Below, piece by piece: positions 49,187 through 64,000 of a DNA stretch of 64,000 bases; the stretch's first letter is position 1; the number at the start of each line of letters is the position of its first letter. Location: positions 32,001 through 96,000 of IMG/VR virus record IMGVR_UViG_3300033388_005412; one strand, given 5' to 3'. Source of the DNA: a virus (taxonomy: Duplodnaviria > Caudoviricetes). Both the position numbers and the translations under genes were made by a program. Under the pieces are notes generated by a model. The model was not told where the DNA came from. It made no database searches and saw only the letters and a list, made by a program, of their open reading frames with translations.

Positions 49187-50386
49187 TCAGTCATAACAAG
49201 CGCTAACCAATTTCGTGTTAGAAATCCACTTAGTTATTGCGCCAACATCCTGATTTGTGTTCAAAGAATACTCAAAATAATCAATTAATCCGGTATCAAG
49301 GTTATATTCACCCGTCCCGAACTTTTGAATATCAACATCATGAATATCTTCAGATGTTTCCATTATCCTTTGAATAATTTCATTAAAAACCAACTCGGTT
49401 CCCATTGAAAGATTATTTATATAATTAACAACATTTGTTACAACAGTTCTCGTCACATCATCTTTTGTACCTGTTGGTGTTGCCGCCTTAAACTCCAAAT
49501 TAATGCTCATGCTGCACGCCTTATACGTCGGGGCCGAAGCAACACCGCGCTCACCCGCGGCCTGAGTCTCATTTATAGCCGTCTGAACGGCACTTAGGAC
49601 GCCATTTGATATAACAGGGCTTTCTGATATGACAAACACGCCGAATGTCCCTATGCCATACTCATAATTACGTATCAAAACATCGCTAACGCCCGGGACT
49701 GATAAACATGCCAATCGTATAGCCGTCAGGTTGGCCTTCTCGGCGCCCTTCATTGCATTAATTATTCTATATCTGAAATTATTATCAGATTCAGTATCGG
49801 CGCCTGTGGTTATTGGCGTCGGATTTGACACTAAAATCAAATCTCTGATAACAACATAATTTAAATCTGAATTATTCCAGACAGTTAACACGCCGCTCGG
49901 CGCATTTGCCGCCGCCCCTAAATATACTGATAATGCGCTGACTGTAACACCATCATCTGTTAAAACAATGTCATCTGTTGTTTTATATTCATATGTTCCG
50001 TCAGTATCCTCGATTTTAGTTAACGCCGGTATCACAATATCCTCAAGAACAACGCCGGTATCGTCATAAATCATGGTTTTTAAATCACTAACAGTTTTAC
50101 CCGACGCTGGATCAATAGTAAATTTAACCTCACCCAGTGGATAATTTGATGATGACCTATCCAGCAAAAACAATTTACCTATCTGGTCCAGGAATTCGCC
50201 GGTTGCCGTTGTTATCATGGACTGAACAAAACGCGAATCCAGATACTCCGATAATGAAACCAGCTCTGAGCTTCCGATCTCAAGTAAAGACCTTGCGATA
50301 CTCCCTGGTGAAAAATTTTTTATTTCAGTGTCGGTTAATAATCTATCTCTGGCCGACACCATTAAATTATCAAAATTCAATCCCAT
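49187..50386 (-). CDS. Baseplate J-like (gp47/gp6 wedge) protein
   Basis: NFSPGSIARSLLE, ATGEFLDQIG, GADTESDNNFRYRI, SVPGVSDV. Confidence 0.9.
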   Translation of the reverse strand: MGLNFDNLMVSARDRLLTDTEIKNFSPGSIARSLLEIGSSELVSLSEYLDSRFVQSMITTATGEFLDQIGKLFLLDRSSSNYPLGEVKFTIDPASGKTVSDLKTMIYDDTGVVLEDIVIPALTKIEDTDGTYEYKTTDDIVLTDDGVTVSALSVYLGAAANAPSGVLTVWNNSDLNYVVIRDLILVSNPTPITTGADTESDNNFRYRIINAMKGAEKANLTAIRLACLSVPGVSDVLIRNYEYGIGTFGVFVISESPVISNGVLSAVQTAINETQAAGERGVASAPTYKACSMSINLEFKAATPTGTKDDVTRTVVTNVVNYINNLSMGTELVFNEIIQRIMETSEDIHDVDIQKFGTGEYNLDTGLIDYFEYSLNTNQDVGAITKWISNTKLVSACYD

Positions 50387-50411: not shown

Positions 50412-50855
50412 CTAACGCCTTCGCATGTAAACATTCAAGGGCTCTCTTGCGTTTACAACCTCTTCGTTATTTTGTGTTTCAGACACATAATTCAAACCAC
50501 CGTTCTGAAAATTAAATGTAAACTTAACTCCTGATGTTCCTATCAACGAGACTATTTCAATATTACAAATTATTGAAGAATCATCAACCGGTAAAACAAG
50601 AACTTTCGCAACAATATCATAATCCCTTAATTTCGTCTGAATCTCATTCCTCATTTTTTGCCGAGTTTGCGAGTCATTTAACATTCCGGTATATTTATTC
50701 AACCCGATACCTAAGTATGGGTGAAACACAAAAGAACCTTCATACACCATCAACATATTTTTAACAAAATCTGAATCATCTTCAGATAATATAAAGTCAC
50801 CGCTCTCAATCATTGTCGCACCAGCCAACGTTAATTTTATATCTGATTCATACAT
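50412..50855 (-). CDS. gp25/gpW-like baseplate wedge (sheath initiator) protein
   Basis: 147 aa; G...FHPYLGIGL...G motif; position directly upstream of baseplate J. Confidence 0.7.
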   Translation of the reverse strand: MYESDIKLTLAGATMIESGDFILSEDDSDFVKNMLMVYEGSFVFHPYLGIGLNKYTGMLNDSQTRQKMRNEIQTKLRDYDIVAKVLVLPVDDSSIICNIEIVSLIGTSGVKFTFNFQNGGLNYVSETQNNEEVVNAREPLNVYMRRR

Positions 50856-50919: not shown

Positions 50920-51606
50920 TCAAAATAAATCCTTTAATTTTTTAACAATATTTAAAGCTTCCGACGCCCTTACCACCATAGTAACATCGGGTAAATGATC
51001 AGGCATACAGAATGGTGGCACGAACGCTTTCGGCAGCATAGACATCATCCCGCTTTCTTTTAACACCACGTTGCTGCGAGTGGGGAAGTCATATTCAACT
51101 ATCTTTCCGAAAACTGATATCTGAGACGGGCTAATAGTTACCAAACTGCCTTCTTCTCCATCACCGGCCGAGCGTAACGCAATAGCATCATCAGAAATCA
51201 ACACCCTGCTTTTGGCACCCGGGAACGACCTGATAGATTTATAGTTAGTTTTAACATTTGAATTATCAATCAACTGAGCAGGCTTCGCCGGTTCTACTGT
51301 ATCAGAATCATTTCCACCATCTTTTTTCATCTTCGGTGTAAAATACGCGAAATGTTTACTGACATCTCTCATATTTGATGAAACATTATCTTCATAAAAT
51401 AAAGTACAGTCAAAATCTTTATCATTTATAGAATAATCCATAATGCCGTTCATATATTGAATTTTGATATCAATAGGAACTTTAGAGAACTCAAAATCAC
51501 CGGCGGTCTTCGGCATAAAATAAATCAACAGCGTGTGATCAGGCAAGCTCCCGGGTTTTTCTTTTGATTTAATTATAAAATTAGAAAGTGTGATCTGCTT
51601 TATCAT
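50920..51606 (-). CDS. Putative central spike (gpV/gp5-like) protein
   Basis: Lies between the hub-like and gp25-like genes; C-terminal short beta repeats (RVLISDDAIALRS...SLVTISPSQISVFG). Start moved to 51606 behind AGGAG. Confidence 0.35.
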   Translation of the reverse strand: MIKQITLSNFIIKSKEKPGSLPDHTLLIYFMPKTAGDFEFSKVPIDIKIQYMNGIMDYSINDKDFDCTLFYEDNVSSNMRDVSKHFAYFTPKMKKDGGNDSDTVEPAKPAQLIDNSNVKTNYKSIRSFPGAKSRVLISDDAIALRSAGDGEEGSLVTISPSQISVFGKIVEYDFPTRSNVVLKESGMMSMLPKAFVPPFCMPDHLPDVTMVVRASEALNIVKKLKDLF

Positions 51607-54600
51607 TTTCATCTCCTGTCGCGGCGCTAATTGTGTCCACAAAATCAAATATTGAATAAATTTTGTCCATAATATGAACTTTAAAACTATCCTTATACAT
51701 ACCTTCCAGGCCGGCGACATACGGCTGGCCCTTATATGTTAAACCGATGACATCTATACAATCTCTGCCCAGAAATTTTCCAATTGTCCAGCTCATAATG
51801 CTGTTTCCCAATAAAAAAGCCGGAATCACAACAGCCGCTGATATGCCTGTAACCCACGGTAACGCTGTCATTGCTGTGGTATACGCCCCGGATGCCGCTA
51901 TTGCCGAATATACGCCTGATGTTGCAGTGACCGCCACCCCAGCTGCTGTTGGTCCAACACCGGCAGCCAGTGCCCCCGATGCCGCTAATCCACCAGACAC
52001 AACTTCAGCCGCAACACCAGTTCCGACCACCCCAGTAACCGCAATCCCAGTTCCAGCCGCGGCCGTTCCCAACCCCATTGCCCCGACTGCTGCTTTCATA
52101 ATTCCTTTTCCCAATCCCATTGCGCTTCCAAAAAAAGGAACACCAAATCCATTCATAGCAGCAATTTCATATTTTATCACAGGATCCTGCGGATAAACAA
52201 TTGCATTCGGTGTAATAGTCGTTAAAAAACCTTTTTGATCAATTCTTTGAACAACCTGTTCAATTTCAATCGGACCATACATCCCATTATAAAGATCTCT
52301 GATAAAAATAATGTCCCAGACTTTCAACTGGGGCATCCCTAATAATGTTAATGACCCTCTATACATCGGCCGCATCATATTCGCCAGAACATTATATCCT
52401 ATTCTGTAAACAGTTGGAATTCGCCCACCCCAAACAGTTTGAACATTTCTTATAAAATCATTAAACCATTCAAACACCCCGAATGATGATGGGTCTATAT
52501 TATTCTGATATGAAATATAACTCTTCAGGTTACTGGTTTTAATATTATCATCAGCGAAAAATTCATGTGTTCGCCATGCACCGGTATTCGGGTTATCTTT
52601 TGGTTCCTCTGGATATCTTATTTTAACATGATTTGAAATTTCTTCAGAACTAGCTCTGATACTATTATCAACTATGTGTCTCAAACTATCAACATAATAA
52701 TAATTACGAATAGGCATATAGCCCCTTTCAATATTACCTTCTGAGTCTTTCAAATCATCAGGATTTTTAATACTCAGTGCGATGCCAGTTGCTTTACTAG
52801 TTTTATCCTCTTTTGTTTGACGAATTAAATTTTTATTTTCTATTGCATCCAATTGAAATTTGAATTTTAATATTTCTGATTTCGTGTATCCAACATTTTT
52901 ATCCTGTCTGATTTTAATCTTATCAACTGAAAATTTTTTAGTAAATAAATCGCCGGCAACGTCGCTCTTAAAAACATACTCCTGAATATCTGTGATAAAT
53001 TCCATCACTTTCTTTCTATCATTGGCTTTCATAACAATACTTAAACTATGTTCGGGATTTTTTTCAATATATTTATCCAATAATTTAAATATCTCATCAT
53101 ATGTTTGAGTTCTAACAATAGAACTAACAACATCCGCAACACCCCGGGTAATGAAACTTTTAATTCCGGCTTTTACCACACTGATAACACTGGATGACGG
53201 CCGGAATCCCTCTCTGTTTTTTTCACTATATTTACTACTAGGTTCTTTAAAAAAATCAGTCAATCGTTTCAAAAGTTCAGCACGATCCTTTCCTTTCTTA
53301 ACTATTTTTTCCATTTTTTCCCGCGTATCATACGCATCCGTATATTTATAATAACCGTTTCTAGGACCTAAATAAATTGTCTGTCTTGTTAAACCGGGAA
53401 CATTACTATTATATGGCAACACAGCCGCAATGTAATCTTCGTGATACAATGTTATCTCATTCAAAATTTCCCACAACGACTGATTACTTATTCTCCAGTC
53501 AAATGTATTATCTTTATATCGATTTCCTATATCTTTCGATGTCCAACCAAATAAAAATGTTAACCACCCCCCGAAAATATGATCCGTAAATGGTAAATAG
53601 ATATTTTCCAATCTAGGATCATAAGTTCCGAATTTATAATATATATCAACAATCGGATTTATTTTACTTCTGAAAAGATCAAAAAAACGATCTTTCGGAC
53701 TCGTGTAATATGATGTTGGTTCAATTTCAAGCCCGAATCTGGCCAGCATATTCGGACTGCCCATATGGCTTAAGCCTGTTATTGATTTCATAGCATAAAT
53801 AACAACATCACCATGTGTCTGCCCGGCACTGCAAAAACCAACATGATAATTGCCACCATCAAAACACTTCTCGTGTAATTCGGCCCCGAAACTCTGAGCA
53901 ACTATTGAAACTCTGTCACCTTGCTGAACCGACACGACCTTTCCAATAAAAAGTGTATCTAAATTCATTGGATTATTGTCGTATCCGGCCTTTATCATTA
54001 TCGTTGTGCCCTCACGTAATAGAAAACGTAAAACGGTCTGCTCCTGCAGCGTCTGTTCTTTCCTTATATTCTCACCCTGATTTGAATTTTTATCACTTAA
54101 ATTTCCAGTTATGTTACTGACACTTATTGTAGCAACATCCCCAGGTGTGTTTTTATTTGATATAACTTCAATACTTTCTATCGCGTTATATGTGTAATAA
54201 TCATCAATCATACCCCATTCTTTGTTGTCTTCTTCGATAAAATACAATTTTACAGTTGGATATGCACGACTCATATGAAGCGTTTTATCTTTTGCTCTAA
54301 ATCCGTTCGTATAACTAATACATTTATTTAAAAGATCTTCCTCCTCTGTTACCCCAAACTCAGATAACACATTCCATGACTGTAAAAAACTATTATCCAG
54401 CTGATTAATTGTGCTGATTTCATCTATCATGCGGTCTATTTGCCTTTTCTTTGAGTCAAGTGACTCAGCGCCTTCATCGGTTCCCAAGTCAGTTGTTATT
54501 TCACCTTCAAATTCTTGAATTAGTTTATAATATGCCCCGATTTTCAAACAATAATTTATCGATGCTACGTTTTTCAATAAATACTGCGATGTGTTGCACT

Positions 54601-57600
54601 CACCATACCTTCCCTTAACTTCATCGTCTGAAGAATTTAAAAAATTAACATATTTCTTCATCTCATTTTCATCATAATCTTTATTTATTTCAACAATTTT
54701 ATCCATAACTTCTTTTCTGGATTTGCCGCCTTTGCCCCATTTTTTACGCCAGTCTCCGCACAAAAGAGATTTTGATAATTTATCATTGTGTTTTTCAAGC
54801 ATAGATAATCCGGGGGCAAATTGCAATAACTCATCACGTTTATGCAAAAGCGCTATTTTAGTTTTAATGGTATCTCTCAATATTTGATAACTTGTATCAT
54901 TTTGAAATTCTTCTCTAATATAAAAAAAATCGGCCGGAGTTGATAGAAAACCGCTTTTGTGTTCAGGTAATTCCAAATCCTGATAATTACCATAATTGCC
55001 TTTCATATATAAAGGCAACTTAGGGATAAACTGTTCTTTTTTAAAACCGAATTTTGCTATTAATTCATCCTTAGCATATAAAATACATTTTATGGCCTGC
55101 TGCCTTAATAACAAATTAATAATACCGACGGCATATTTTTCAGGATCATGCCCTTTCGGCACCCCAATTGTTGGACTCCATACTGTTCCAGCTGCGAAAC
55201 CAATGCCGGCTCCTGCTAAACCACCAATAAATGTTCCCCACCCTGGAACAATTGATCCAACTCCAGCACCAAATACCATTCCACCTATAGCAAGCGGCAA
55301 ACCCGTATAAAATTTTAATTTTAATGCGAATCGTTCTTTTCTTTCTTTTTTCCAATTGTTATATAAGAATAAATATTTAATAGCATCAAAAATTTCAATT
55401 ATTTTTAATCCACCTTTATATCTTTTTAAAAATTCTCCACGGAAAAAACCCTTTTCATAATTAAACGGTAACCTAACATCGCCGCCTAAAATTAATGCTG
55501 ATACAACTTTTTCATATAATGGAAAATACTTTTTTAATTCAAAAGCATCACTGAAATTTAAATCATAATTATTTATTTGTTCAGTCGCCCAGTCCATTGT
55601 CATGTGACCATATGGCACATCAATTTCGGAACCATATCCAACAAAAAAGAATAATCTCAAAATCATAGCTCGCATATTCTGCATAGCTCTACCGTATATG
55701 TAACTGTCTTTCTCATTATCTTCCGGTAATCTATATTCAGTTATAAGTTTTTTCTTAACATCTTCGATTAAATTATCATCAAAGAAATTCGACGGCACAA
55801 GTCTTTCATATTCCGTCATGTCAATATCAGACTGAACCAGTCGTAACGTCAGATTCCACCACCCTGGTTTGCCTTTAATTGTCTCACATACAAAATCCTT
55901 AAATAATACACGAGTTATGCCCAATACTTTAAAAAGCCCGTTATAATTCAAATCAGGCGGAACTTCTAAACTATTTGTCCTCGCGATAAGTTTTGAAATA
56001 CCAATTCTTTCTCTCAATGACCGGGAAACGCATGCTTTTTTAGATAAAGATTTCAGCACTCTCATCAAAGTTTCATTACATGTCTGCAAATTAACCTGAA
56101 CAACCCAGTCACCACGGCCCATGTACTGTTTTGTCGGCATTGTGTAGTTCAGCACCGGAATTTCGGCCATCCTTGTTTCCAATGACGCCGACATACCGGC
56201 TATAATAGTATCTTCATCCTCGGTGAATTCAAATTTATATCTATTGGTAAAACCATATTTAAGCTTTTTCTGTCGTGCAATCTGTTTATCCATTAAAACC
56301 ATAATTTTTTTTCCGGATGGTATCTTTTCAAATTCATTAACAAATTCCAAAAGTGTATACGGGCCATGATCTTTTTTTAAATCAGTCCCTGGTATATCTA
56401 TAGGAATTGAAATAGTTTTCTCGCCCTTATACGCCTCCGCGAATTTTTTAACACCCCACCCGTAATATGTTGAACCACTTCCATAGTAAAATAAACCAAT
56501 AGTTCGCCAAAATTCAGTCCATGCCCGCACAATAACATTTGTAACTTTAGTTGTCGTGCCGGGCCATTCCAGACTATTAACTAATTCAACAATTTTAAAT
56601 TGTATATCAGCATTTAATTTCAAAATATCATTTTGTAATGATTCGCGCTCCTCATCGCCGAACTCCGTTATATCATATCTGCATTTAAACCGTTTAAAAT
56701 CATTTGTCCCGACCTGACGCAGCCAATTATCCGGCGCAAGAAAATTAAAACCACTTTTAATCGTGGTATTTTCATTCTGTTTAGATAAAGAAGGAACATA
56801 ATTCATTTTGATATCAACATCATCGTCAATTACTGGAAGTCCGGTTAATAAAGGTTTAACATAATTTTCAAATGGTTTGCAATTTGATATATTTTTTGTA
56901 CGATTTATGTTCTGATTGCTGGCATACTGCATATCGTTCGCCGTTTCCGGATACTGTAAATTAGTTATCTGTGAATAATATTCAATCTGTTTCAACGCAT
57001 CTTCATTTGACACGCAAAACTCAAATCCCGATGAATACGGCGAATAATTAAAAACATCCAGCACCAAATTACATTGAAGTGACTCAGGAAACCCCGGAAC
57101 TGTCGACACAACTATTGATTGTAAAGCACATGCAAGCTGAACATCTTCATATATTCCAAGCTCTTTATATTCATCTATCATATCAGCAGCCACACCCGCT
57201 TTACTTATATTTGTTCTTTCCTTTTCTTTTTTGCTTTTGGCCTTTTTTAATAATTTTATATCATTTTCTAATTTTTGAATCTCGGTATTATATTCTTTAA
57301 ATTTCTCAGGATCTGCGGCAAACACATCAAGATTTGCTTTTTTTATCTTTAGTTCTTCTTCCTTCTCCGTTATTTCTTTTTGCTTTTCTTTTATATCAGC
57401 ATCAAAGTAATCAATAACCCCGGCATACGTGTCCATTACAACTTTCTGAAAATTTTCATCAGTTTTTTTAAAATATCCTGCGCCCTGATTCTTATCAACT
57501 TCCCTCTCATAAGACGGTGATCTGTATCTTCCGGGTGATTCCTCCAATTTTTTAGGTTTACTCCACGTTACATCAGGTATTAATAAACTTCTAATGTGCT

Positions 57601-58447
57601 GATTTTCAATCGGGAGAAACGGCGATCTTAAAAACTCAGCCAGTAATTTGCGAAAACTATTATCATAATCCTTCTCCACTTTGCCGTTAATATCCTGCAG
57701 CGATGGAAAAAATATAGTCAATTCTATACGATTATTCTGCTGGCCCGTCTTAATTTTCGGCGTGCCGGCCGTCCTAACCGTATTAATCGGCATGTTAACA
57801 TTCTGTTCCGTTATTGTTATCTGATCAGGTGGAACCGGGAGAATAACAGTTCCTATTTTACAGGCACCGGGAACTTGCAATTCCTCTTCAGCGCCTTTCA
57901 TTGCCTCTATTATTTTACCTGTTCTGGCAATTTGGGCTTTATAACTTTCTTTCTTTTCAGCGAAATCAGCCCGCCTGTTTTTATCAGCTAATTGTGTGAG
58001 ATATTCTTTATTACTAATTTGATCTGTTGACCTGACACTGTCAAACCCATTTCCTGATTTGATAAGTTCAGCATTCATGTTTTTACCATCAACATAAACA
58101 ACACCTAATTGACGATCATACATATCTTCAGAAATTATTGTTTGATCCTGACTTGGATCTTGCTGTAAAAACTCTATTTCTTTTCCAGCTAAATTATCTT
58201 TTGCCCATTGTGTTGCTTTTTCACCTTCTGGTGTGTCTTTTTCATATGCATCAACACCGATGGGCCGAACTACTACTGGATCAGCACCATCAAATGACAC
58301 CCAGTATGTATCACCATCAATAACACCTGTAGGACAGGGACGATCCGGATCTATACTAGGTACTATTTTACCTGTTTTTAAAGGAAAACATTTACTGATA
58401 TTTTTCTTATTTATCGCAGGATCGTATTTTAAATATTCTTCACTCAT
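51581..58447 (-). CDS. Giant baseplate-hub-like protein with an N-terminal staphylococcal nuclease domain and membrane-type segments
   Basis: VIDGDT...VRPIGVDAYE...DMYDRQL...NAELIKSG (SNase); LPVPPDQI tube-initiator-like motif; hub-like IESIEV...ATISVSN...I.AGY...F.GKV..V...V.I.AQSFG; glycine zipper and long Ala/Gly hydrophobic C-terminus. Confidence 0.75.
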   Translation of the reverse strand: MSEEYLKYDPAINKKNISKCFPLKTGKIVPSIDPDRPCPTGVIDGDTYWVSFDGADPVVVRPIGVDAYEKDTPEGEKATQWAKDNLAGKEIEFLQQDPSQDQTIISEDMYDRQLGVVYVDGKNMNAELIKSGNGFDSVRSTDQISNKEYLTQLADKNRRADFAEKKESYKAQIARTGKIIEAMKGAEEELQVPGACKIGTVILPVPPDQITITEQNVNMPINTVRTAGTPKIKTGQQNNRIELTIFFPSLQDINGKVEKDYDNSFRKLLAEFLRSPFLPIENQHIRSLLIPDVTWSKPKKLEESPGRYRSPSYEREVDKNQGAGYFKKTDENFQKVVMDTYAGVIDYFDADIKEKQKEITEKEEELKIKKANLDVFAADPEKFKEYNTEIQKLENDIKLLKKAKSKKEKERTNISKAGVAADMIDEYKELGIYEDVQLACALQSIVVSTVPGFPESLQCNLVLDVFNYSPYSSGFEFCVSNEDALKQIEYYSQITNLQYPETANDMQYASNQNINRTKNISNCKPFENYVKPLLTGLPVIDDDVDIKMNYVPSLSKQNENTTIKSGFNFLAPDNWLRQVGTNDFKRFKCRYDITEFGDEERESLQNDILKLNADIQFKIVELVNSLEWPGTTTKVTNVIVRAWTEFWRTIGLFYYGSGSTYYGWGVKKFAEAYKGEKTISIPIDIPGTDLKKDHGPYTLLEFVNEFEKIPSGKKIMVLMDKQIARQKKLKYGFTNRYKFEFTEDEDTIIAGMSASLETRMAEIPVLNYTMPTKQYMGRGDWVVQVNLQTCNETLMRVLKSLSKKACVSRSLRERIGISKLIARTNSLEVPPDLNYNGLFKVLGITRVLFKDFVCETIKGKPGWWNLTLRLVQSDIDMTEYERLVPSNFFDDNLIEDVKKKLITEYRLPEDNEKDSYIYGRAMQNMRAMILRLFFFVGYGSEIDVPYGHMTMDWATEQINNYDLNFSDAFELKKYFPLYEKVVSALILGGDVRLPFNYEKGFFRGEFLKRYKGGLKIIEIFDAIKYLFLYNNWKKERKERFALKLKFYTGLPLAIGGMVFGAGVGSIVPGWGTFIGGLAGAGIGFAAGTVWSPTIGVPKGHDPEKYAVGIINLLLRQQAIKCILYAKDELIAKFGFKKEQFIPKLPLYMKGNYGNYQDLELPEHKSGFLSTPADFFYIREEFQNDTSYQILRDTIKTKIALLHKRDELLQFAPGLSMLEKHNDKLSKSLLCGDWRKKWGKGGKSRKEVMDKIVEINKDYDENEMKKYVNFLNSSDDEVKGRYGECNTSQYLLKNVASINYCLKIGAYYKLIQEFEGEITTDLGTDEGAESLDSKKRQIDRMIDEISTINQLDNSFLQSWNVLSEFGVTEEEDLLNKCISYTNGFRAKDKTLHMSRAYPTVKLYFIEEDNKEWGMIDDYYTYNAIESIEVISNKNTPGDVATISVSNITGNLSDKNSNQGENIRKEQTLQEQTVLRFLLREGTTIMIKAGYDNNPMNLDTLFIGKVVSVQQGDRVSIVAQSFGAELHEKCFDGGNYHVGFCSAGQTHGDVVIYAMKSITGLSHMGSPNMLARFGLEIEPTSYYTSPKDRFFDLFRSKINPIVDIYYKFGTYDPRLENIYLPFTDHIFGGWLTFLFGWTSKDIGNRYKDNTFDWRISNQSLWEILNEITLYHEDYIAAVLPYNSNVPGLTRQTIYLGPRNGYYKYTDAYDTREKMEKIVKKGKDRAELLKRLTDFFKEPSSKYSEKNREGFRPSSSVISVVKAGIKSFITRGVADVVSSIVRTQTYDEIFKLLDKYIEKNPEHSLSIVMKANDRKKVMEFITDIQEYVFKSDVAGDLFTKKFSVDKIKIRQDKNVGYTKSEILKFKFQLDAIENKNLIRQTKEDKTSKATGIALSIKNPDDLKDSEGNIERGYMPIRNYYYVDSLRHIVDNSIRASSEEISNHVKIRYPEEPKDNPNTGAWRTHEFFADDNIKTSNLKSYISYQNNIDPSSFGVFEWFNDFIRNVQTVWGGRIPTVYRIGYNVLANMMRPMYRGSLTLLGMPQLKVWDIIFIRDLYNGMYGPIEIEQVVQRIDQKGFLTTITPNAIVYPQDPVIKYEIAAMNGFGVPFFGSAMGLGKGIMKAAVGAMGLGTAAAGTGIAVTGVVGTGVAAEVVSGGLAASGALAAGVGPTAAGVAVTATSGVYSAIAASGAYTTAMTALPWVTGISAAVVIPAFLLGNSIMSWTIGKFLGRDCIDVIGLTYKGQPYVAGLEGMYKDSFKVHIMDKIYSIFDFVDTISAATGDENDKADHTF

Positions 58448-58632
58448 TTCTGTAGTAATTTCCTCTGGCGATGATCCATTTCTTTCTGATTATTTTTATT
58501 AGTTTTACGGCGATCCATAACAGATACAGTGCATCTATCCCCAGTCGCCGATTCAACTAACTGAGCAATCATGTTAGCTAAATTATTCGCGTCTTTGTCA
58601 GACTGTATTCTCACCTCAACATTATATGCCAT
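58444..58632 (-). CDS. Small hypothetical protein
   Basis: 62 aa; AGAGG RBS; ATGA overlap with the hub gene. Confidence 0.6.
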   Translation of the reverse strand: MAYNVEVRIQSDKDANNLANMIAQLVESATGDRCTVSVMDRRKTNKNNQKEMDHRQRKLLQK

Positions 58633-58670: not shown

Positions 58671-61600
58671 TCATTTTCCGTATTTTTGCAATTTCTCCCG
58701 GACACTCACACTGTCGATATTATATGACGTAGTCGAGAAATTATTTCGTGTATACGCTTTCTGCCTGATTTCATTTTTAAAAACAGGCATCCTCGGTAAA
58801 CTTAAATATTTCTTTTTCTGTATATTTTCAAAACTTTTATTATTAAATAATTCTATATAAGCCTTAGGCAAATCACTTGGATTTCCTAAAGGAGTCTGCA
58901 TTAATTGAGCCCAATCCAATTCCGGTTTTGTAAAAGCATAATCCCACTTCTCACCGCCGTTGCCGGGCATGTGTCCCAATGACCCCATCTGATTAGGCCT
59001 GAACAAATTCAACGCAGCATATCCTAAAGCAACCATGCCGCCGATTCTACTTAAATTACCGGCATTTTTCCATGCGGTTTGCCCAAGTTTATTAACAAAA
59101 TCCTTTTTCATACATTGCAACATTGTTATATCCGAACCCTGTGTTTGAAAATTCAAACCATCCAATAAAAAAGGTTTAACGTGTTCACTGGCAGCTGTTG
59201 CTCCGGGATTTGTAATATTATGTATAATGGCCTTACCAATAGTTGAATTGCCCGATATAAAACTTTGTGTTACCCTATTACCACGACTCCAATAATCAGG
59301 TTGATCCATTTCCGCCGCAACCATCCATTCCCGAGTCCTTACTTTAGCATTTGGACCTAAATGTTTCCGCACAAATGCGGCCGACGACTTACCCGGCAAT
59401 TCAGCATTCCAAAATTCCCCAACTTTAACATCCAATTTCGCCGTATCGTCCATAAACCTCACATTCTTCGGCTCACTAAGATTATACAACGCATTTGAAA
59501 CCTCATCTGAAAGTGTCATAGTTTTACCTTTAACTTTCAAACCCCATTCTATCATCGGAGTTATTTTCCCCAAAAAATCATGTGCTTCGGTTGGTCTCCA
59601 CTTCTGGTCACCCATCAAAGCAATCGCTCTATTAACCAACGGTGTTATTTTAGGCGGCCACGATTTTGGAAATGTTGCCATTTTTTCCATAACCTTTTCC
59701 CATTCACCAGGACTTGATTTCATAAACGCAAATTCATTTCTGATATTTTTCTTTATAATTTCCTTTGCAATTTTCAATGGCTTTAACACACTTGCATGTA
59801 ATTTAGGATCATATGTCGCATATTTTGTGACATCGCCACGTGTAACTGGCTCCAATGCCATCGTAGATGCTTTACTATAAACACCCCTTCTAGTAAAAGC
59901 AGCCTGTGAAAACTCTTTCATACCCTTTGGAGTAATCGCCAAAAAAGCCTCATCACCATCGGAATCACCCCCTAATAATTTTCCGATAACGGATGATATA
60001 CGCATCATATCACCCTTTATAGTACTTCTTGCCCACGCCATGACAGGCGGCATTGACTCACCGCCCGTTGTTGGAAATCTTATTGCAACACCAGGCGCCG
60101 GTATCAATTCCTTTGAAAAGGCATCAGACCATAACTTCCTTATTTGTCCGCCTTTAATACTATTCAAATTGGTTTCCTGAGTTGCTTTAAATAAACCATC
60201 AACGGTCATATCCTTTTCACCTAATTTACCAACTACTTTATTAGCAACCTGCTTCCAATATGGGTGAGCCGCACCAACATGATTTTTATTTCCAGAAATC
60301 CACCCGCCATAATTTTTTAAATATTTCATAACAGAATCCATCTCAGACGATCCCATACTGGTTATCTGCTGCTTAATCATCTTAGCATTATTGTTAACCC
60401 AGTCTTTTGAAACCTGCACTTCAAAGTCCAAAACAGATTTCTTAGTATAATTTCCCAATATACCTTCCGCCCCTGTTATATATGGATCAGCAAACTGAAG
60501 TGTTCCAGTCGCGCCTGGTGCGGAAAATTTCATTCCAGGTGTTATTTTATATTCGCTCATAATATCAAGCATTTTTTGTAAAAAACCACCCGCACCAGGA
60601 GATCCGCTAAGTACCTTTTTCAATAAATTTGCCTGAGTTATCATTAATTGTGATGTTATACTGTGTTTTCCGTCAGTGGCATCAATCCATGGCTGCTCGT
60701 ATAACTGAACAACACTGTTCGACATGCCAAATCTTGTTCCTGGAACTTTAGCAAATGTCGCTTTCGGCGTTTTCACATATCCCAAACCAATTTTCTGAAA
60801 TAAATCGGCGATATCTCTCGGGACTGTTCTGCCCCTAATAATTTGTTCTGATATCAACTTACCCTTTGCTTTCAAATATGTTGGTAATTTCGAATATTCC
60901 GGACTATTTACATCATAAAGCGTTCCCTCAATCTCATGAAATGTTTGATCGGCTATTTTAGCCATTGAGCCCCATTCAGACGGATCACTATGCAAAAACT
61001 TTTTGGCCATTTTTTTAAACTCGTTACCCTCAACTCCTTTTAAAATACTATTAAATTTTTGTATTATATCAACACCGCCCGGTTCCACAACTCCCTGTGA
61101 TATCGCAAACTGCCTACGAAGCTGTCCCATTTTATAACTATTTTGCTCCTGTGCCATATTCAACAATCCTTCAAATAATTTAGAACTGCCAGGCTGATGC
61201 TTTAAAACATTTAAAAAAGAAATATTTAAAGGCACTGTTCCTCCGCCGCGGCCCATAAGCGATTCCAATTGACTAAACCCAAACTGCATATTTGACACTA
61301 GCACACCAGGTGTGAAATCGCCCGGCTGTTGTTTATTAACTAAAGGTCTAACAATTTCAAGAAAGGAAACATATTTCTTTGAAAAAATCTTATCGACAAC
61401 TGCTGAGTCATATGACTTGATTTCGCCAACCATTTTACGGGCTTCTTCGGCCCAGCCTGAAAACTCATCAGGTGACATTTCCCACGCTTTCTGATAAAAT
61501 TGCGAATACATGCTACCGGGTATTGATATTCGTCGTATCAATTCAGAAACAACCGCCCCTTTTTCAGCAGCATCCCATGTTCTATTCATAACAGCAGTCA

Positions 61601-64000
61601 CACCGGCCGCTGACGCTGTTATATTTGAAAAACTAGGAACATCCTGTGTCATCTTCAAACTTTTCATAACTTTAACAATACTATTTAATGCTTTATCATA
61701 ATTTCCGGCAAAAATACTTTCTTTAAACGCATTTGCTTTTATCACTAATTCACCAGTTTGGCGATGAGTTACAACATTCAATTTATCACTTATTCCGGTG
61801 CTCTTAACGGCTCTTACTACCGCAGCCTTTTTATTGGCATCCTTTCCAGCCCATGCTGAAATTCGCCCAAGCATAATAGTTAACATGCCGGCAGGATCAA
61901 CTGTTTTAAGAGTATCATGTCCAACCATCATATCAACACCGTCTGTCATGTCAGCTGTTTCTCTAATTATTCCTTTAGTTAATCCCTTCACCAAAACTTT
62001 CATACCGGCTTTTGCTTTATGTAAATAATCGAATTCTATACGTGTTTTACCTTGATATGATTTAACACTTGTAATTACGGCTTCAGTATTTCCTTTATAA
62101 TGCTGTGCAATGCCATTTAGTACACCAAAAGAATCATTGGGTTTAATAAACTGCCCAGGAGCAAGCTTTTCAATTTTCGTATCAACAATAGCATGTCCCC
62201 CATGACGAACAACCCCGAAACGATTCAAAAATTTTTTATCCATCCAAACCTGCTGCTCATGTGTTTCTTTACTATGCGTAATTAAAACATTCGCCCTATG
62301 CATATAATTTCTAAGTCCACCGTCAAGCATTTCATCTTCAAATAAACCAGGCATAAATGATCTACCTGTCTTATCAACTTTTAAACCTTTCCAATCAATA
62401 TTTCTACCACGGCCAACATCTATGGAAGTTGTGCTACCAAAAAACTGATACAGTGCCCTATGCAACGGCATACCATGAAATTCCGGATACACTTCATCAT
62501 ATGGTAATAATGTTTGTATTCCTCTAATTGATTTATTCGGTGATACAAGTCCTGAGACAAATGGTTTAAATTTAGGAGACATTTTCTCCATGGCATCCAT
62601 ATAATTCGGGCGATTTTTACGAATATTCCAATCTTTTTCGGACCATAAATAATTATCCAAAAAAGCATATAAATTATCTAGTACAGATTCATGCGCCACG
62701 TTTGAGTCATATAATTTTTGCCAACTCATTCCTTTATATAACCTACCAACCAATTTATCAACAAAATTTCTAACACCGCGGGGACCCTGTGGCAGATCTT
62801 CCAAGTATTTTATTCTATTATTAACCAGCGTTCTCAAATGTTCACCTGATAATGATCTATGCGCACCAGGATTTAATTTCATAGACTTTTGCTGATCAAG
62901 TGAACCTTGCAAAAACCTTATCACATCGCCAACTCCGCGACTTTTAGATTTATTTAATAATGTATTGAACGCATCAATATCACCTTGAATATTTTTACCA
63001 ATAACCTGTCCCTTTAAATATTGCGGCAACATTTTTATCAATTCATCACTTGTCACAGGAACAACTTTGTACTTTGCGGAACCCTTCAACGTAGCTAATC
63101 TTTCTCTATTTGCCGTTAACCCACTTATTTTAGCCACAAACTCACGTTTACCCTTTTGTACATCTGTTAGTTCAAATCTTATTGCCTCTTTGATCTCAGC
63201 GCCGTTTTTTGTCTTAATAACATTTAAAATTCCTATATCTTTTATACTATCTACTTTCACACCGTCAACAACAATTTTATCACGACTCATATCAATGTAT
63301 GTCAACACAGAATCCCTTTCTAAAAATTTAGCATGAATTTTCTGTAATTCCGGTAAAGCTGTTTTTTCAAGACCACTCATAAATCCCATAGATTTTAAAG
63401 TTTCTTTATACGGCGCAACATTTAATGATCGTGTCCAATCAACAATATCAACACCAGATACCGGCTCGGCGCCTTTTGTTATATTTCTCATACCCTTGTC
63501 GACCATGCCCTGAACATCTTTTTCAGCGCCTTGTATTAACAAACTCTTATTTTCAGTCGCCATTAAATTCAAAAAATATTTATGTATATTTGCAGACAAC
63601 TTTTGATACTGTTCGTTTGGGTAATTAATATCACCTATTTTAGCCTGTGATGTGATTTTTATAGGAGAAATCGGATCAAATCGCGTGGCCCATTTATTCG
63701 GCATATTCAAAGGTAATTTTATATGCCTGGATTGACCATTTGCTTTATTAAGAGCAACATCAAAAACAAATTTAGAACCGCCTCTGCCGAAATCTTCTAT
63801 GTTAACTGTGATATCATCAAGATTTGCGCCTATGTCGCTCGCTGTTTTTCTTATTAACTGGTAATATTTCATTAAATTATCATATCCCGGGCGAATATAC
63901 CCCGCACCTTTTAACATCTTTCCTGTTTTGGTGTATTTTCCACCAAAAACATCTAAAAGATTAGCGTCTTTAAATACTCTGTCTATTCTTTTTAATTGTT
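58671..64000 (-). CDS. Giant tape-measure-position virion protein containing a single-chain two-barrel RNA polymerase (N-terminus outside the window)
   Basis: Frame is open to base 63998 (QLKRIDRVFKDANLLDVFGGKYTKTGK-MLKG). Beta-like barrel: HEQQVWM, GQFIKPND...AVITSV, GMKVLVKGLTKGII, GVDMMV. Beta-prime-like barrel: EVQVS, AIRFPT, GGDSDGD. C-terminal hydrophobic IGGMVALGYAALNLF. Confidence 0.85.
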   Translation of the reverse strand, partial: QLKRIDRVFKDANLLDVFGGKYTKTGKMLKGAGYIRPGYDNLMKYYQLIRKTASDIGANLDDITVNIEDFGRGGSKFVFDVALNKANGQSRHIKLPLNMPNKWATRFDPISPIKITSQAKIGDINYPNEQYQKLSANIHKYFLNLMATENKSLLIQGAEKDVQGMVDKGMRNITKGAEPVSGVDIVDWTRSLNVAPYKETLKSMGFMSGLEKTALPELQKIHAKFLERDSVLTYIDMSRDKIVVDGVKVDSIKDIGILNVIKTKNGAEIKEAIRFELTDVQKGKREFVAKISGLTANRERLATLKGSAKYKVVPVTSDELIKMLPQYLKGQVIGKNIQGDIDAFNTLLNKSKSRGVGDVIRFLQGSLDQQKSMKLNPGAHRSLSGEHLRTLVNNRIKYLEDLPQGPRGVRNFVDKLVGRLYKGMSWQKLYDSNVAHESVLDNLYAFLDNYLWSEKDWNIRKNRPNYMDAMEKMSPKFKPFVSGLVSPNKSIRGIQTLLPYDEVYPEFHGMPLHRALYQFFGSTTSIDVGRGRNIDWKGLKVDKTGRSFMPGLFEDEMLDGGLRNYMHRANVLITHSKETHEQQVWMDKKFLNRFGVVRHGGHAIVDTKIEKLAPGQFIKPNDSFGVLNGIAQHYKGNTEAVITSVKSYQGKTRIEFDYLHKAKAGMKVLVKGLTKGIIRETADMTDGVDMMVGHDTLKTVDPAGMLTIMLGRISAWAGKDANKKAAVVRAVKSTGISDKLNVVTHRQTGELVIKANAFKESIFAGNYDKALNSIVKVMKSLKMTQDVPSFSNITASAAGVTAVMNRTWDAAEKGAVVSELIRRISIPGSMYSQFYQKAWEMSPDEFSGWAEEARKMVGEIKSYDSAVVDKIFSKKYVSFLEIVRPLVNKQQPGDFTPGVLVSNMQFGFSQLESLMGRGGGTVPLNISFLNVLKHQPGSSKLFEGLLNMAQEQNSYKMGQLRRQFAISQGVVEPGGVDIIQKFNSILKGVEGNEFKKMAKKFLHSDPSEWGSMAKIADQTFHEIEGTLYDVNSPEYSKLPTYLKAKGKLISEQIIRGRTVPRDIADLFQKIGLGYVKTPKATFAKVPGTRFGMSNSVVQLYEQPWIDATDGKHSITSQLMITQANLLKKVLSGSPGAGGFLQKMLDIMSEYKITPGMKFSAPGATGTLQFADPYITGAEGILGNYTKKSVLDFEVQVSKDWVNNNAKMIKQQITSMGSSEMDSVMKYLKNYGGWISGNKNHVGAAHPYWKQVANKVVGKLGEKDMTVDGLFKATQETNLNSIKGGQIRKLWSDAFSKELIPAPGVAIRFPTTGGESMPPVMAWARSTIKGDMMRISSVIGKLLGGDSDGDEAFLAITPKGMKEFSQAAFTRRGVYSKASTMALEPVTRGDVTKYATYDPKLHASVLKPLKIAKEIIKKNIRNEFAFMKSSPGEWEKVMEKMATFPKSWPPKITPLVNRAIALMGDQKWRPTEAHDFLGKITPMIEWGLKVKGKTMTLSDEVSNALYNLSEPKNVRFMDDTAKLDVKVGEFWNAELPGKSSAAFVRKHLGPNAKVRTREWMVAAEMDQPDYWSRGNRVTQSFISGNSTIGKAIIHNITNPGATAASEHVKPFLLDGLNFQTQGSDITMLQCMKKDFVNKLGQTAWKNAGNLSRIGGMVALGYAALNLFRPNQMGSLGHMPGNGGEKWDYAFTKPELDWAQLMQTPLGNPSDLPKAYIELFNNKSFENIQKKKYLSLPRMPVFKNEIRQKAYTRNNFSTTSYNIDSVSVREKLQKYGK

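Follow-up and report, generated by a model that had tools for sequence, protein, structure and literature searches.

We report on P0003, a giant protein encoded at the end of a 64,000-nucleotide stretch of viral DNA (Duplodnaviria; Caudoviricetes). The stretch, hereafter the window, comprises bases 32001-96000 of the 203,294-bp record IMGVR_UViG_3300033388_005412, which has terminal repeats. Between residues ~890 and 1700, P0003 carries a catalytic element of the type found in the beta-prime subunit of RNA polymerase (RNAP) and, upstream of it, a sandwich-barrel hybrid (SBHM)-like domain with a conserved pair of basic residues after it. Our results suggest that P0003 is a virion two-barrel polymerase, occupying the tape-measure slot of a 203-kb myovirus of the 0305phi8-36 lineage and transcribing the first genes of the infection; we judge this reading somewhat likelier to be true than false.

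A preliminary description, made from the letters of the window, had pointed to this protein. All of the strings and coordinates quoted there are present exactly in the translation of window 58671-63998 (minus strand), which is a stop-free frame. It had put the length at 1775 aa or more, with the frame still open past 64000; the frame is indeed open, and recovery of the full open reading frame (ORF) corrects the length to 2103 aa. The ATG lies outside the window, at window coordinate 64982 (genome 96982), and shares 1 nt with the TAA stop of the giant gene upstream. The elements of P0003 discussed below are as follows, in window coordinates unless marked otherwise.

58671-64982 (genome 90671-96982), minus strand: full P0003 gene, with residues 329-2103 inside the window (58671..64000)
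62250..62291, minus strand: NVLITHSKETHEQQ, residues 898-911, proposed first element of a beta-like barrel; E909 (window 62258) at the position of beta E813
61995..62228, minus strand: predicted SBHM-like beta domain, residues ~919-996
61974..62000, minus strand: K995-x7-K1003 in GMKVLVKGLTKG (starting at residue 993), proposed beta-like basic pair; K995 at 62000 and K1003 at 61976
61848..61940, minus strand: GVDMMV...AGMLTIMLG, residues 1015-1045, a likeness to beta only
59883..60470, minus strand: beta-prime-like catalytic region, residues ~1505-1700
60072..60080, minus strand: R-F-P motif (R1635-P1637) in AIRFPT (starting at 1633); R1635 at 60080, 38 aa ahead of the first Asp
59952..59966, minus strand: DSDGD loop in GGDSDGD (starting at 1671), putative Mg-binding triad D1673, D1675 and D1677
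58983..59042, minus strand: moderately hydrophobic helix GGMVALGYAALNLF, residues 1981-2000
58803..58982, minus strand: best-conserved block of the P0003 family, residues ~2001-2060, after the hydrophobic helix

The catalytic signature of P0003 and its family

Within the beta-prime-like region, an EVQVS strand (residue 1521), a helical insert, the R-F-P motif, the DSDGD loop, a hydrophobic segment and a proline follow one another in that order. The distance from R1635 to D1673 is 38 aa, as compared with 35 aa from R425 to D460 in Escherichia coli K-12 beta-prime; both E. coli spacings used in the preliminary description (R425-D460, 35 aa, and K1065-x7-K1073) were confirmed on the K-12 genes. 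The layout as a whole, consisting of R-x-P, ~36 aa, DxDxD, a short hydrophobic segment and Pro, is shared with E. coli beta-prime (RAP, then 35 aa to the loop) and with two phage enzymes, gp66 of phi14:2 (GenBank gp077; RIP, 39 aa, DFDID-KMYVML-P) and gp96 of P23-45. The last of these (R-N-P, 38 aa, DFDGD-TLVVL-PKGL) is nearly superimposable on P0003 (R-F-P, 38 aa, DSDGD-EAFLAIT-PKGM).

An exhaustive HMMER search over 1.84 billion representatives yielded eight proteins: the fragment of P0003 itself, P0005 (58% identical to P0003), five giants (P0007-P0011; 1742-2299 aa, 18-23% identity to P0003) and one short fragment. A word-indexed search recovered P0005 only, two scans of viral contigs found no further members, and a metagenome scan added one long locus (a 2122-aa ORF, the length of P0008) together with three C-terminal fragments. 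No sequencing run is listed as carrying the P0003 gene. The seven sequences P0003, P0005 and P0007-P0011 constitute the family alignment and profile used throughout this work. In the full-length alignment only 37 columns are invariant, among them D1673, D1675, D1677 and P1685. The loop reads G-[GA]-D-x-D-x-D in every member and G-[GA]-D-x-D-[GFA]-D in six of the seven, the remaining one having L-D, while both the R/K-x-P ~38 aa upstream and the Pro 8 aa downstream are kept in all seven. Searches of Pfam, PHROGs, NCBIfam and PDB with P0003 alone gave no match, nor did the family profile against PDB, and tblastn against GenBank phages returned no relative; the lineage thus appears to be undescribed, as the preliminary description had suggested it might be.

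A profile of 67 proteobacterial RpoC sequences was compared by hhalign with all 2103 columns of the family profile. The best match (score 27.0-27.7) pairs P0003 1596-1692 with beta-prime 375-478 and covers exactly NRAPTLH...NADFDGD...HVP, aligned with VAIRFPT...MRISSVIGKLLGGDSDGDEAFLAITP. Sixteen null profiles, made by reversal and shuffling of 40-column blocks, scored 16.1-24.2, and the fully reversed family scored 21.4. The best family match to gp96 is the DFDGD...LPKGL segment (24.4, as against 20.9 reversed), and the best match to two smaller polymerase-like ORFs of the same genome, described below, falls on the same catalytic site (E 0.0055). Because D1673, D1675, D1677 and P1685 are invariant at 18-23% identity and the profile match stands above all 16 nulls, the beta-prime-like signature exceeds chance. 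The preliminary description had proposed this signature for P0003; it proves to be conserved across the family and common to gp96 and gp66.

Feature comparison in the ESM-Atlas placed residues 1500-1760 nearest to two named clusters, the RNA-dependent RNA polymerase (RdRP) family PF05183 (0.84) and RNA_pol_Rpb1_2, PF00623 (0.75). These scores are at the level of leads, and the neighbours probably reflect the DxDxD motif itself. We also considered, and rejected, an EF-hand (DxDxDG) interpretation: Gly is absent from position 6, Glu is absent from position 12, and the loop leads instead into a hydrophobic strand and Pro.

The upstream half of the signature resembles the beta subunit. The SBHM-like domain, modelled with moderate confidence, lies immediately ahead of K-x7-K, as does the flap in beta, and exactly at the site where the preliminary description had placed such an insert; we regard the insert at residues ~919-996 as plausibly real. 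The residue at the E909 position is acidic in six of seven family members, and positions 995 (K/R/H) and 1003 (K/R) are basic in all seven, with shifts of at most one residue. The K-x7-K spacing of K995/K1003 equals that of E. coli beta K1065/K1073. At GVDMMV the family consensus, ID..V..D...K...G.ML...LG.L, resembles VDIVLNP...RMNIGQILE..LG of beta.

Towards the C-terminus, the hydrophobic helix that had been described as the end of the protein in fact starts at residue 1981, ~110 aa before the C-terminus; it is only moderately hydrophobic and falls below the Kyte-Doolittle transmembrane threshold. In the block that follows it (~2001-2060), mean identity to P0003 over the six other members is 0.62, as compared with ~0.2-0.3 elsewhere, and the consensus is SLGHMPGxGGEYWDY..KPELDW..LMQTPLGNPxDLPKAYI. 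The block has no match to anything known; it could serve for docking at the tail tip or hub, or be a site of processing. No Pfam peptidase match was obtained in P0003.

Genomic context and neighbouring genes

The P0003 gene lies inside an 85-kb structural block on the minus strand. In order of transcription, genes for the tail sheath, the tube, a tube paralog, a gp142-like protein, two small chaperone-like proteins and the giant P0006 precede P0003, which is followed by a 62-aa ORF, P0002, a gp25/W-like gene and a Baseplate_J gene. The larger neighbours are located as follows.

L003:83-8638 (genome 96982-105537, just past the window end), minus strand: P0006, upstream giant of 2851 aa with two inteins
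51581..58447, minus strand: P0002, 2288 aa, baseplate-hub homolog of 0305phi8-36 gp147 by blastp, with an N-terminal staphylococcal-nuclease domain
50412-50855, minus strand: gp25/W-like gene (baseplate)
49187-50386, minus strand: Baseplate_J gene (baseplate)

Judged by the sheath protein, the nearest cultured phages are Moorella phage MTATph1 and Bacillus phage 0305phi8-36. The annotated record of the latter presents the same order: sheath gp139, tube gp140, tube paralog gp141, gp142, chaperones gp143/144, gp145 (1930 aa, virion), gp146 (2537 aa), gp147 (1903 aa, hub) and then gpV-like and gpJ-like proteins. There gp146 is annotated as a 'hypothetical tape measure protein' and was found in the virion by mass spectrometry. 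Comparison of the two modules by blastp gave collinear homologs of gp136, gp138, gp139, gp140, gp141, gp142, gp143/144, gp145, gp147 and the gpJ-like gp151, with gp145 matching P0006 and gp147 matching P0002; P0003 and gp146 form the sole compared gene pair without a blastp match. The P0003 gene, one removed from the chaperone pair and ahead of the hub gene, is in the position of a tape-measure gene, and the putative tape-measure gene of 0305phi8-36 is likewise one gene away from the chaperones (PMC2147016). This collinear synteny with gp136-gp151 gives good support to placing the giant P0003 at the tape-measure position within a contractile-tail module, as the preliminary description had also done. 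The role of gp146 as the ruler was assigned by Hardies et al. mainly from tail-length correlation, and within the gp146 lineage conservation is confined to the last 60 residues (PMC2147016). In the contigs of the relatives that were examined (L004-L007), a giant with an intein, or one cut by the contig end, precedes the P0003 homolog, and a second giant downstream is seen in L004, the one contig reaching far enough.

The inteins of P0006 contain homing-endonuclease domains (residues 1320-1772 and 1797-2219) and are just 24 residues apart. Both lie where P0006 is most strongly conserved, in the block RAFWD..G..E..RR..P...NP / N.MP.W, and such an intein hotspot suggests an important active site. 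The extein, of 1975 aa, is collinear with the 0305phi8-36 virion protein gp145, and the homologous upstream gene on the relatives' contigs also has intein-type (Hint/LAGLIDADG) domains. P0006 was considered as the supplier of a beta-like barrel and set aside, being a collinear gp145 homolog with no recognisable polymerase motif. The staphylococcal-nuclease domain of P0002 (PF00565, E 1.4e-6) may act on host nucleic acid during entry; the same protein has long Gly/Ala-rich hydrophobic stretches mid-protein and at its C-terminus. The 62-aa ORF (window 58444-58632, minus strand) has a good ribosome-binding site, occupies the 223-nt gap between the P0003 and hub genes, and has a TGA that overlaps the hub ATG (ATGA). 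At the equivalent place the P0008 contigs show a ~260-nt gap, and on the P0007 contig two small ORFs follow the homolog.

Two further polymerase-like ORFs are encoded in the right arm of the genome:

genome 147331-149316, plus strand: polymerase-like ORF L008, 661 aa, with GGD[FY]DGD
genome 172127-174073, plus strand: polymerase-like ORF L009, 648 aa, with GGD[FY]DGD

These are paralogs (46% identical) in which TR[YF]PW is followed after 31 aa by GGD[FY]DGDQ, a loop that hhalign sets on NADFDGD of beta-prime (score 35.5, E 0.002). Neither has a Pfam, PDB or GenBank-phage match. They are candidates for non-virion polymerases of the same phage, and their presence fits a transcription programme run by the phage. 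Long intergenic gaps, of 150-750 nt, are numerous in the right arm (137-203 kb, plus strand). Genome-wide, the commonest intergenic 11-mers are Shine-Dalgarno sites of the GGAGGAAAAAT type; these strong GGAGG ribosome-binding sites, taken together with a GC content of 35% and the kinship with Bacillus and Moorella phages, indicate a Bacillota-like host.

Weighing the polymerase reading

In the mechanism that we propose, two double-psi beta-barrels of P0003 would form one active site, as in other single-chain two-barrel RNA polymerases. The upstream chaperone pair would help to assemble P0003 into the tail, from which it would exit through the tail tube at infection and transcribe the first phage genes ahead of any phage protein synthesis. 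Its early targets may include the two ~650-aa polymerase-like genes of the right arm, and the programme as proposed would parallel the P23-45 cascade, which runs from gp96 through gp64 to the host RNAP. In a more specific version, the P0003 family would be an undescribed lineage of injected single-chain two-barrel polymerases that took over the tape-measure slot in contractile-tailed jumbo phages related to 0305phi8-36. Its beta-like barrel would have a cellular-type SBHM insert, in contrast to the YonO, gp66 and QDE-1 clade, and P0003 would head a cascade leading to the two ~650-aa polymerases and on to sigma-directed host RNAP. We consider this version possible but less likely than not.

Several observations weigh against a polymerase in this slot. 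The preliminary description had proposed a beta-like barrel, of which the conserved basic pair and the acidic residue in six of seven members stand, while the score against the RpoB profile lies within the null range: by full-length hhalign the best match to RpoB falls elsewhere (25.2), with nulls reaching 25.9. A windowed comparison (24.6) does pair RIEF..GMKVLVKGLTKG..VDMMV..MLTIMLG with KVYLAV..GDKMAGRHGNKG..VDIVLNP..RMNIGQILETHLG, a match that is not independent because the region had been picked by eye for its likeness. ESM-Atlas features of residues 880-1090 returned irrelevant neighbours. The spacer between the proposed barrels is ~490 aa, as compared with ~140 aa in gp66 and QDE-1, and SBHM domains are frequent outside polymerases. 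AlphaFold2, supplied with the seven family sequences, gave low-confidence models with no barrels, both for residues 860-1960 (predicted local distance difference test, pLDDT, 46; predicted template modelling score, pTM, 0.26) and for residues 1490-1790 (pLDDT 44, pTM 0.33), and Foldseek found no significant match with either. A search for a shared promoter-like motif retrieved, among intergenic 11-mers, Shine-Dalgarno sites only, and nothing shared was found upstream of both smaller polymerase genes. Because gp146 has no DxDxD, the tape-measure slot does not by itself imply a polymerase, and it is from synteny alone that we infer, reasonably, the presence of P0003 in the virion.

The low-confidence 860-1960 model is mixed alpha/beta with an SBHM domain, the flanks in the region of the proposed second barrel having pLDDT <50, and the beta-prime chains placed high in its Foldseek list aligned with the SBHM domain only. 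In the 1490-1790 model, also of low confidence, three strands and a short helix precede the loop, an arrangement compatible with the beta-prime barrel, and no strand follows it at the AFLAIT segment. Prediction of residues 870-1110 and 1490-1790 as two chains with Mg gave a score of 0.01, which counts neither for nor against packing of the barrels. The hhalign comparisons of the beta-like region and of the post-loop region with the two smaller paralogs gave noise.

The most serious competing explanation is that P0003 is merely a tape measure, or an ejected tail-lumen protein, in which the DxDxD loop forms a metal-binding or other non-polymerase site. P0003 sits exactly in the gp146 slot, one gene past the chaperone pair; its family, at 2100-2300 aa, is similar in size to gp146 (2537 aa), which was assigned as a ruler by tail length; and the best-conserved part is the C-terminal ~60 aa, as in the gp146 lineage. 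Embedded enzymatic domains are, moreover, frequent in tape measures, no barrel fold was obtained for P0003, and the beta-like barrel is not significant. Against such a role, the catalytic signature outscores the nulls in the comparison with beta-prime, its DxDxD context lacks EF-hand features, and the half of P0003 that was modelled is predicted to be mixed alpha/beta with an SBHM domain and not a series of long helices. In the control set, moreover, the full signature matched proven two-barrel polymerases only. When the pattern [RK]xP-(28-42)-[GANS][GAVS]DxDxD-(5-8)-P was run on six-frame ORFs of at least 80 aa (963,000 residues with 221 occurrences of DxDxD), it retrieved RpoC (71), P23-45 gp96 and gp64, phi14:2 gp66 and the P0003 family, without any other match; since the pattern was composed after the sequences had been viewed and the background is small, a further point on the unfavourable side, the result speaks for specificity and supplies no probability. 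On balance we consider a plain tape measure or lumen protein unlikely, yet a contender to be taken seriously.

Two other explanations carry less weight. P0003 could be a true two-barrel nucleotidyl transferase that serves in pulling the 203-kb genome into the cell by transcription, in priming or in RNA-templated synthesis of the QDE-1 kind. The motif evidence for such roles is identical to that for early transcription, RNA-dependent RNA polymerases and archaeal PolD both belong to the two-barrel superfamily (PMC7824862), polymerase-assisted injection was raised for the 0305phi8-36 lineage by Hardies et al. (PMC2147016), and the same phage already has two other polymerase-like genes. No finding separates genome pulling, priming, RNA-templated and early-gene roles, but the characterised virion two-barrel enzymes (gp66, gp96 and the phiKZ virion RNAP) all transcribe early genes, and we regard these other roles as improbable. 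That the motif match is coincidental, P0003 being a structural protein with no enzymatic role and no entry into the cell, would agree with the absence of database matches of any kind and with the poor fold predictions. Against it stand three Asp and flanking Gly and Pro residues that are invariant at 18-23% overall identity, a catalytic-site alignment above the null, and the general ejection of tail-lumen and hub-region proteins; we give it very little credence.

An early-transcribing virion polymerase at this position would have consequences beyond a single phage. To our knowledge, gp96 of the thermophilic siphovirus P23-45 is the only tape-measure-associated RNA polymerase to have been characterised. 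If active, P0003 would extend that theme to a jumbo myovirus lineage, and polymerase injection by way of the tail lumen would occur in contractile-tailed jumbo phages too. It would then have arisen in a lineage for which homology to neither gp96 nor gp66 can be detected, an argument for tail-borne first transcriptases as a recurrent solution. A very divergent branch, possibly with a cellular-type flap insert, would also join the two-barrel polymerase tree that is used for questions of the origins of transcription. There would remain a mechanical puzzle, namely how one protein in the tape-measure slot sets or fills a long tail and then refolds into an enzyme.

Comparison with known systems

The order of elements in bacterial beta (an acidic strand, the SBHM insert, K-x7-K and VD..V...ML..LG) matches that in P0003. 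Unlike bacterial RNAP, P0003 is one chain, has Gln in place of beta D814 and has Ser at the position usually held by Phe or Tyr in the loop, and it shows no recognisable clamp, Zn-finger or bridge-helix motif. The SBHM insert, as modelled, would be a feature of cellular-type beta subunits, and enzymes of the gp66, YonO and QDE-1 types do not have it (PMC7824862).

In 0305phi8-36, gp146 occupies the same slot of a collinear module and is a giant like P0003. Close to the C-terminus it resembles P0003 in having a helix of moderate hydrophobicity, after which comes a G-H motif; a weak hhalign match pairs the two helices (22.6, E 0.07) and is no better than controls, and the proteins show no significant sequence similarity. 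The sole polymerase recognised in that phage is the non-virion, RdRP/YonO-like orf99 (PMC2147016).

The giant virion RNAP gp66 of phi14:2 (2180 aa) is near P0003 in size, has its beta-like element N-terminal to the beta-prime-like one and is encoded among other giant virion proteins, all as in P0003. The R-x-P spacing is similar, while the loop is DFDID as opposed to the DxDGD of the P0003 family, and the best hhalign match of the family to gp66 (21.2) lies away from the active site. From these comparisons P0003 does not appear to be a member of the gp66 family. The phages differ as well, that of gp66 being a crassvirus of the podovirus-like kind in which gp66 has neither a sheath nor a tape-measure context.

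The tape-measure-fused gp96 of Thermus phage P23-45, a virion two-barrel RNAP (bioRxiv 10.1101/2022.12.01.518664 / PMC10770324), shares with P0003 the tape-measure position in the tail module in addition to the catalytic layout described above. Both phages, furthermore, have separate and smaller non-virion polymerase-like genes, gp64 in P23-45 and the two ~650-aa ORFs here. By tblastn and hhalign, no homology between gp96 and P0003 was detected outside the catalytic loop. In gp96 the polymerase takes up the N-terminal 1200 of 5002 aa, and after it comes a long tape that bears membrane and metallopeptidase domains, in contrast to P0003, where the signature spans residues 900-1700 of 2103 and no peptidase domain was found. 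The tail of P23-45 is non-contractile, unlike that of the P0003 phage with its sheath and baseplate genes, and the activity of gp96 is proven, whereas P0003 is a predicted polymerase only. P0003 therefore falls outside the gp96 type by architecture, and gp96 is still its closest counterpart by proposed function and by position.

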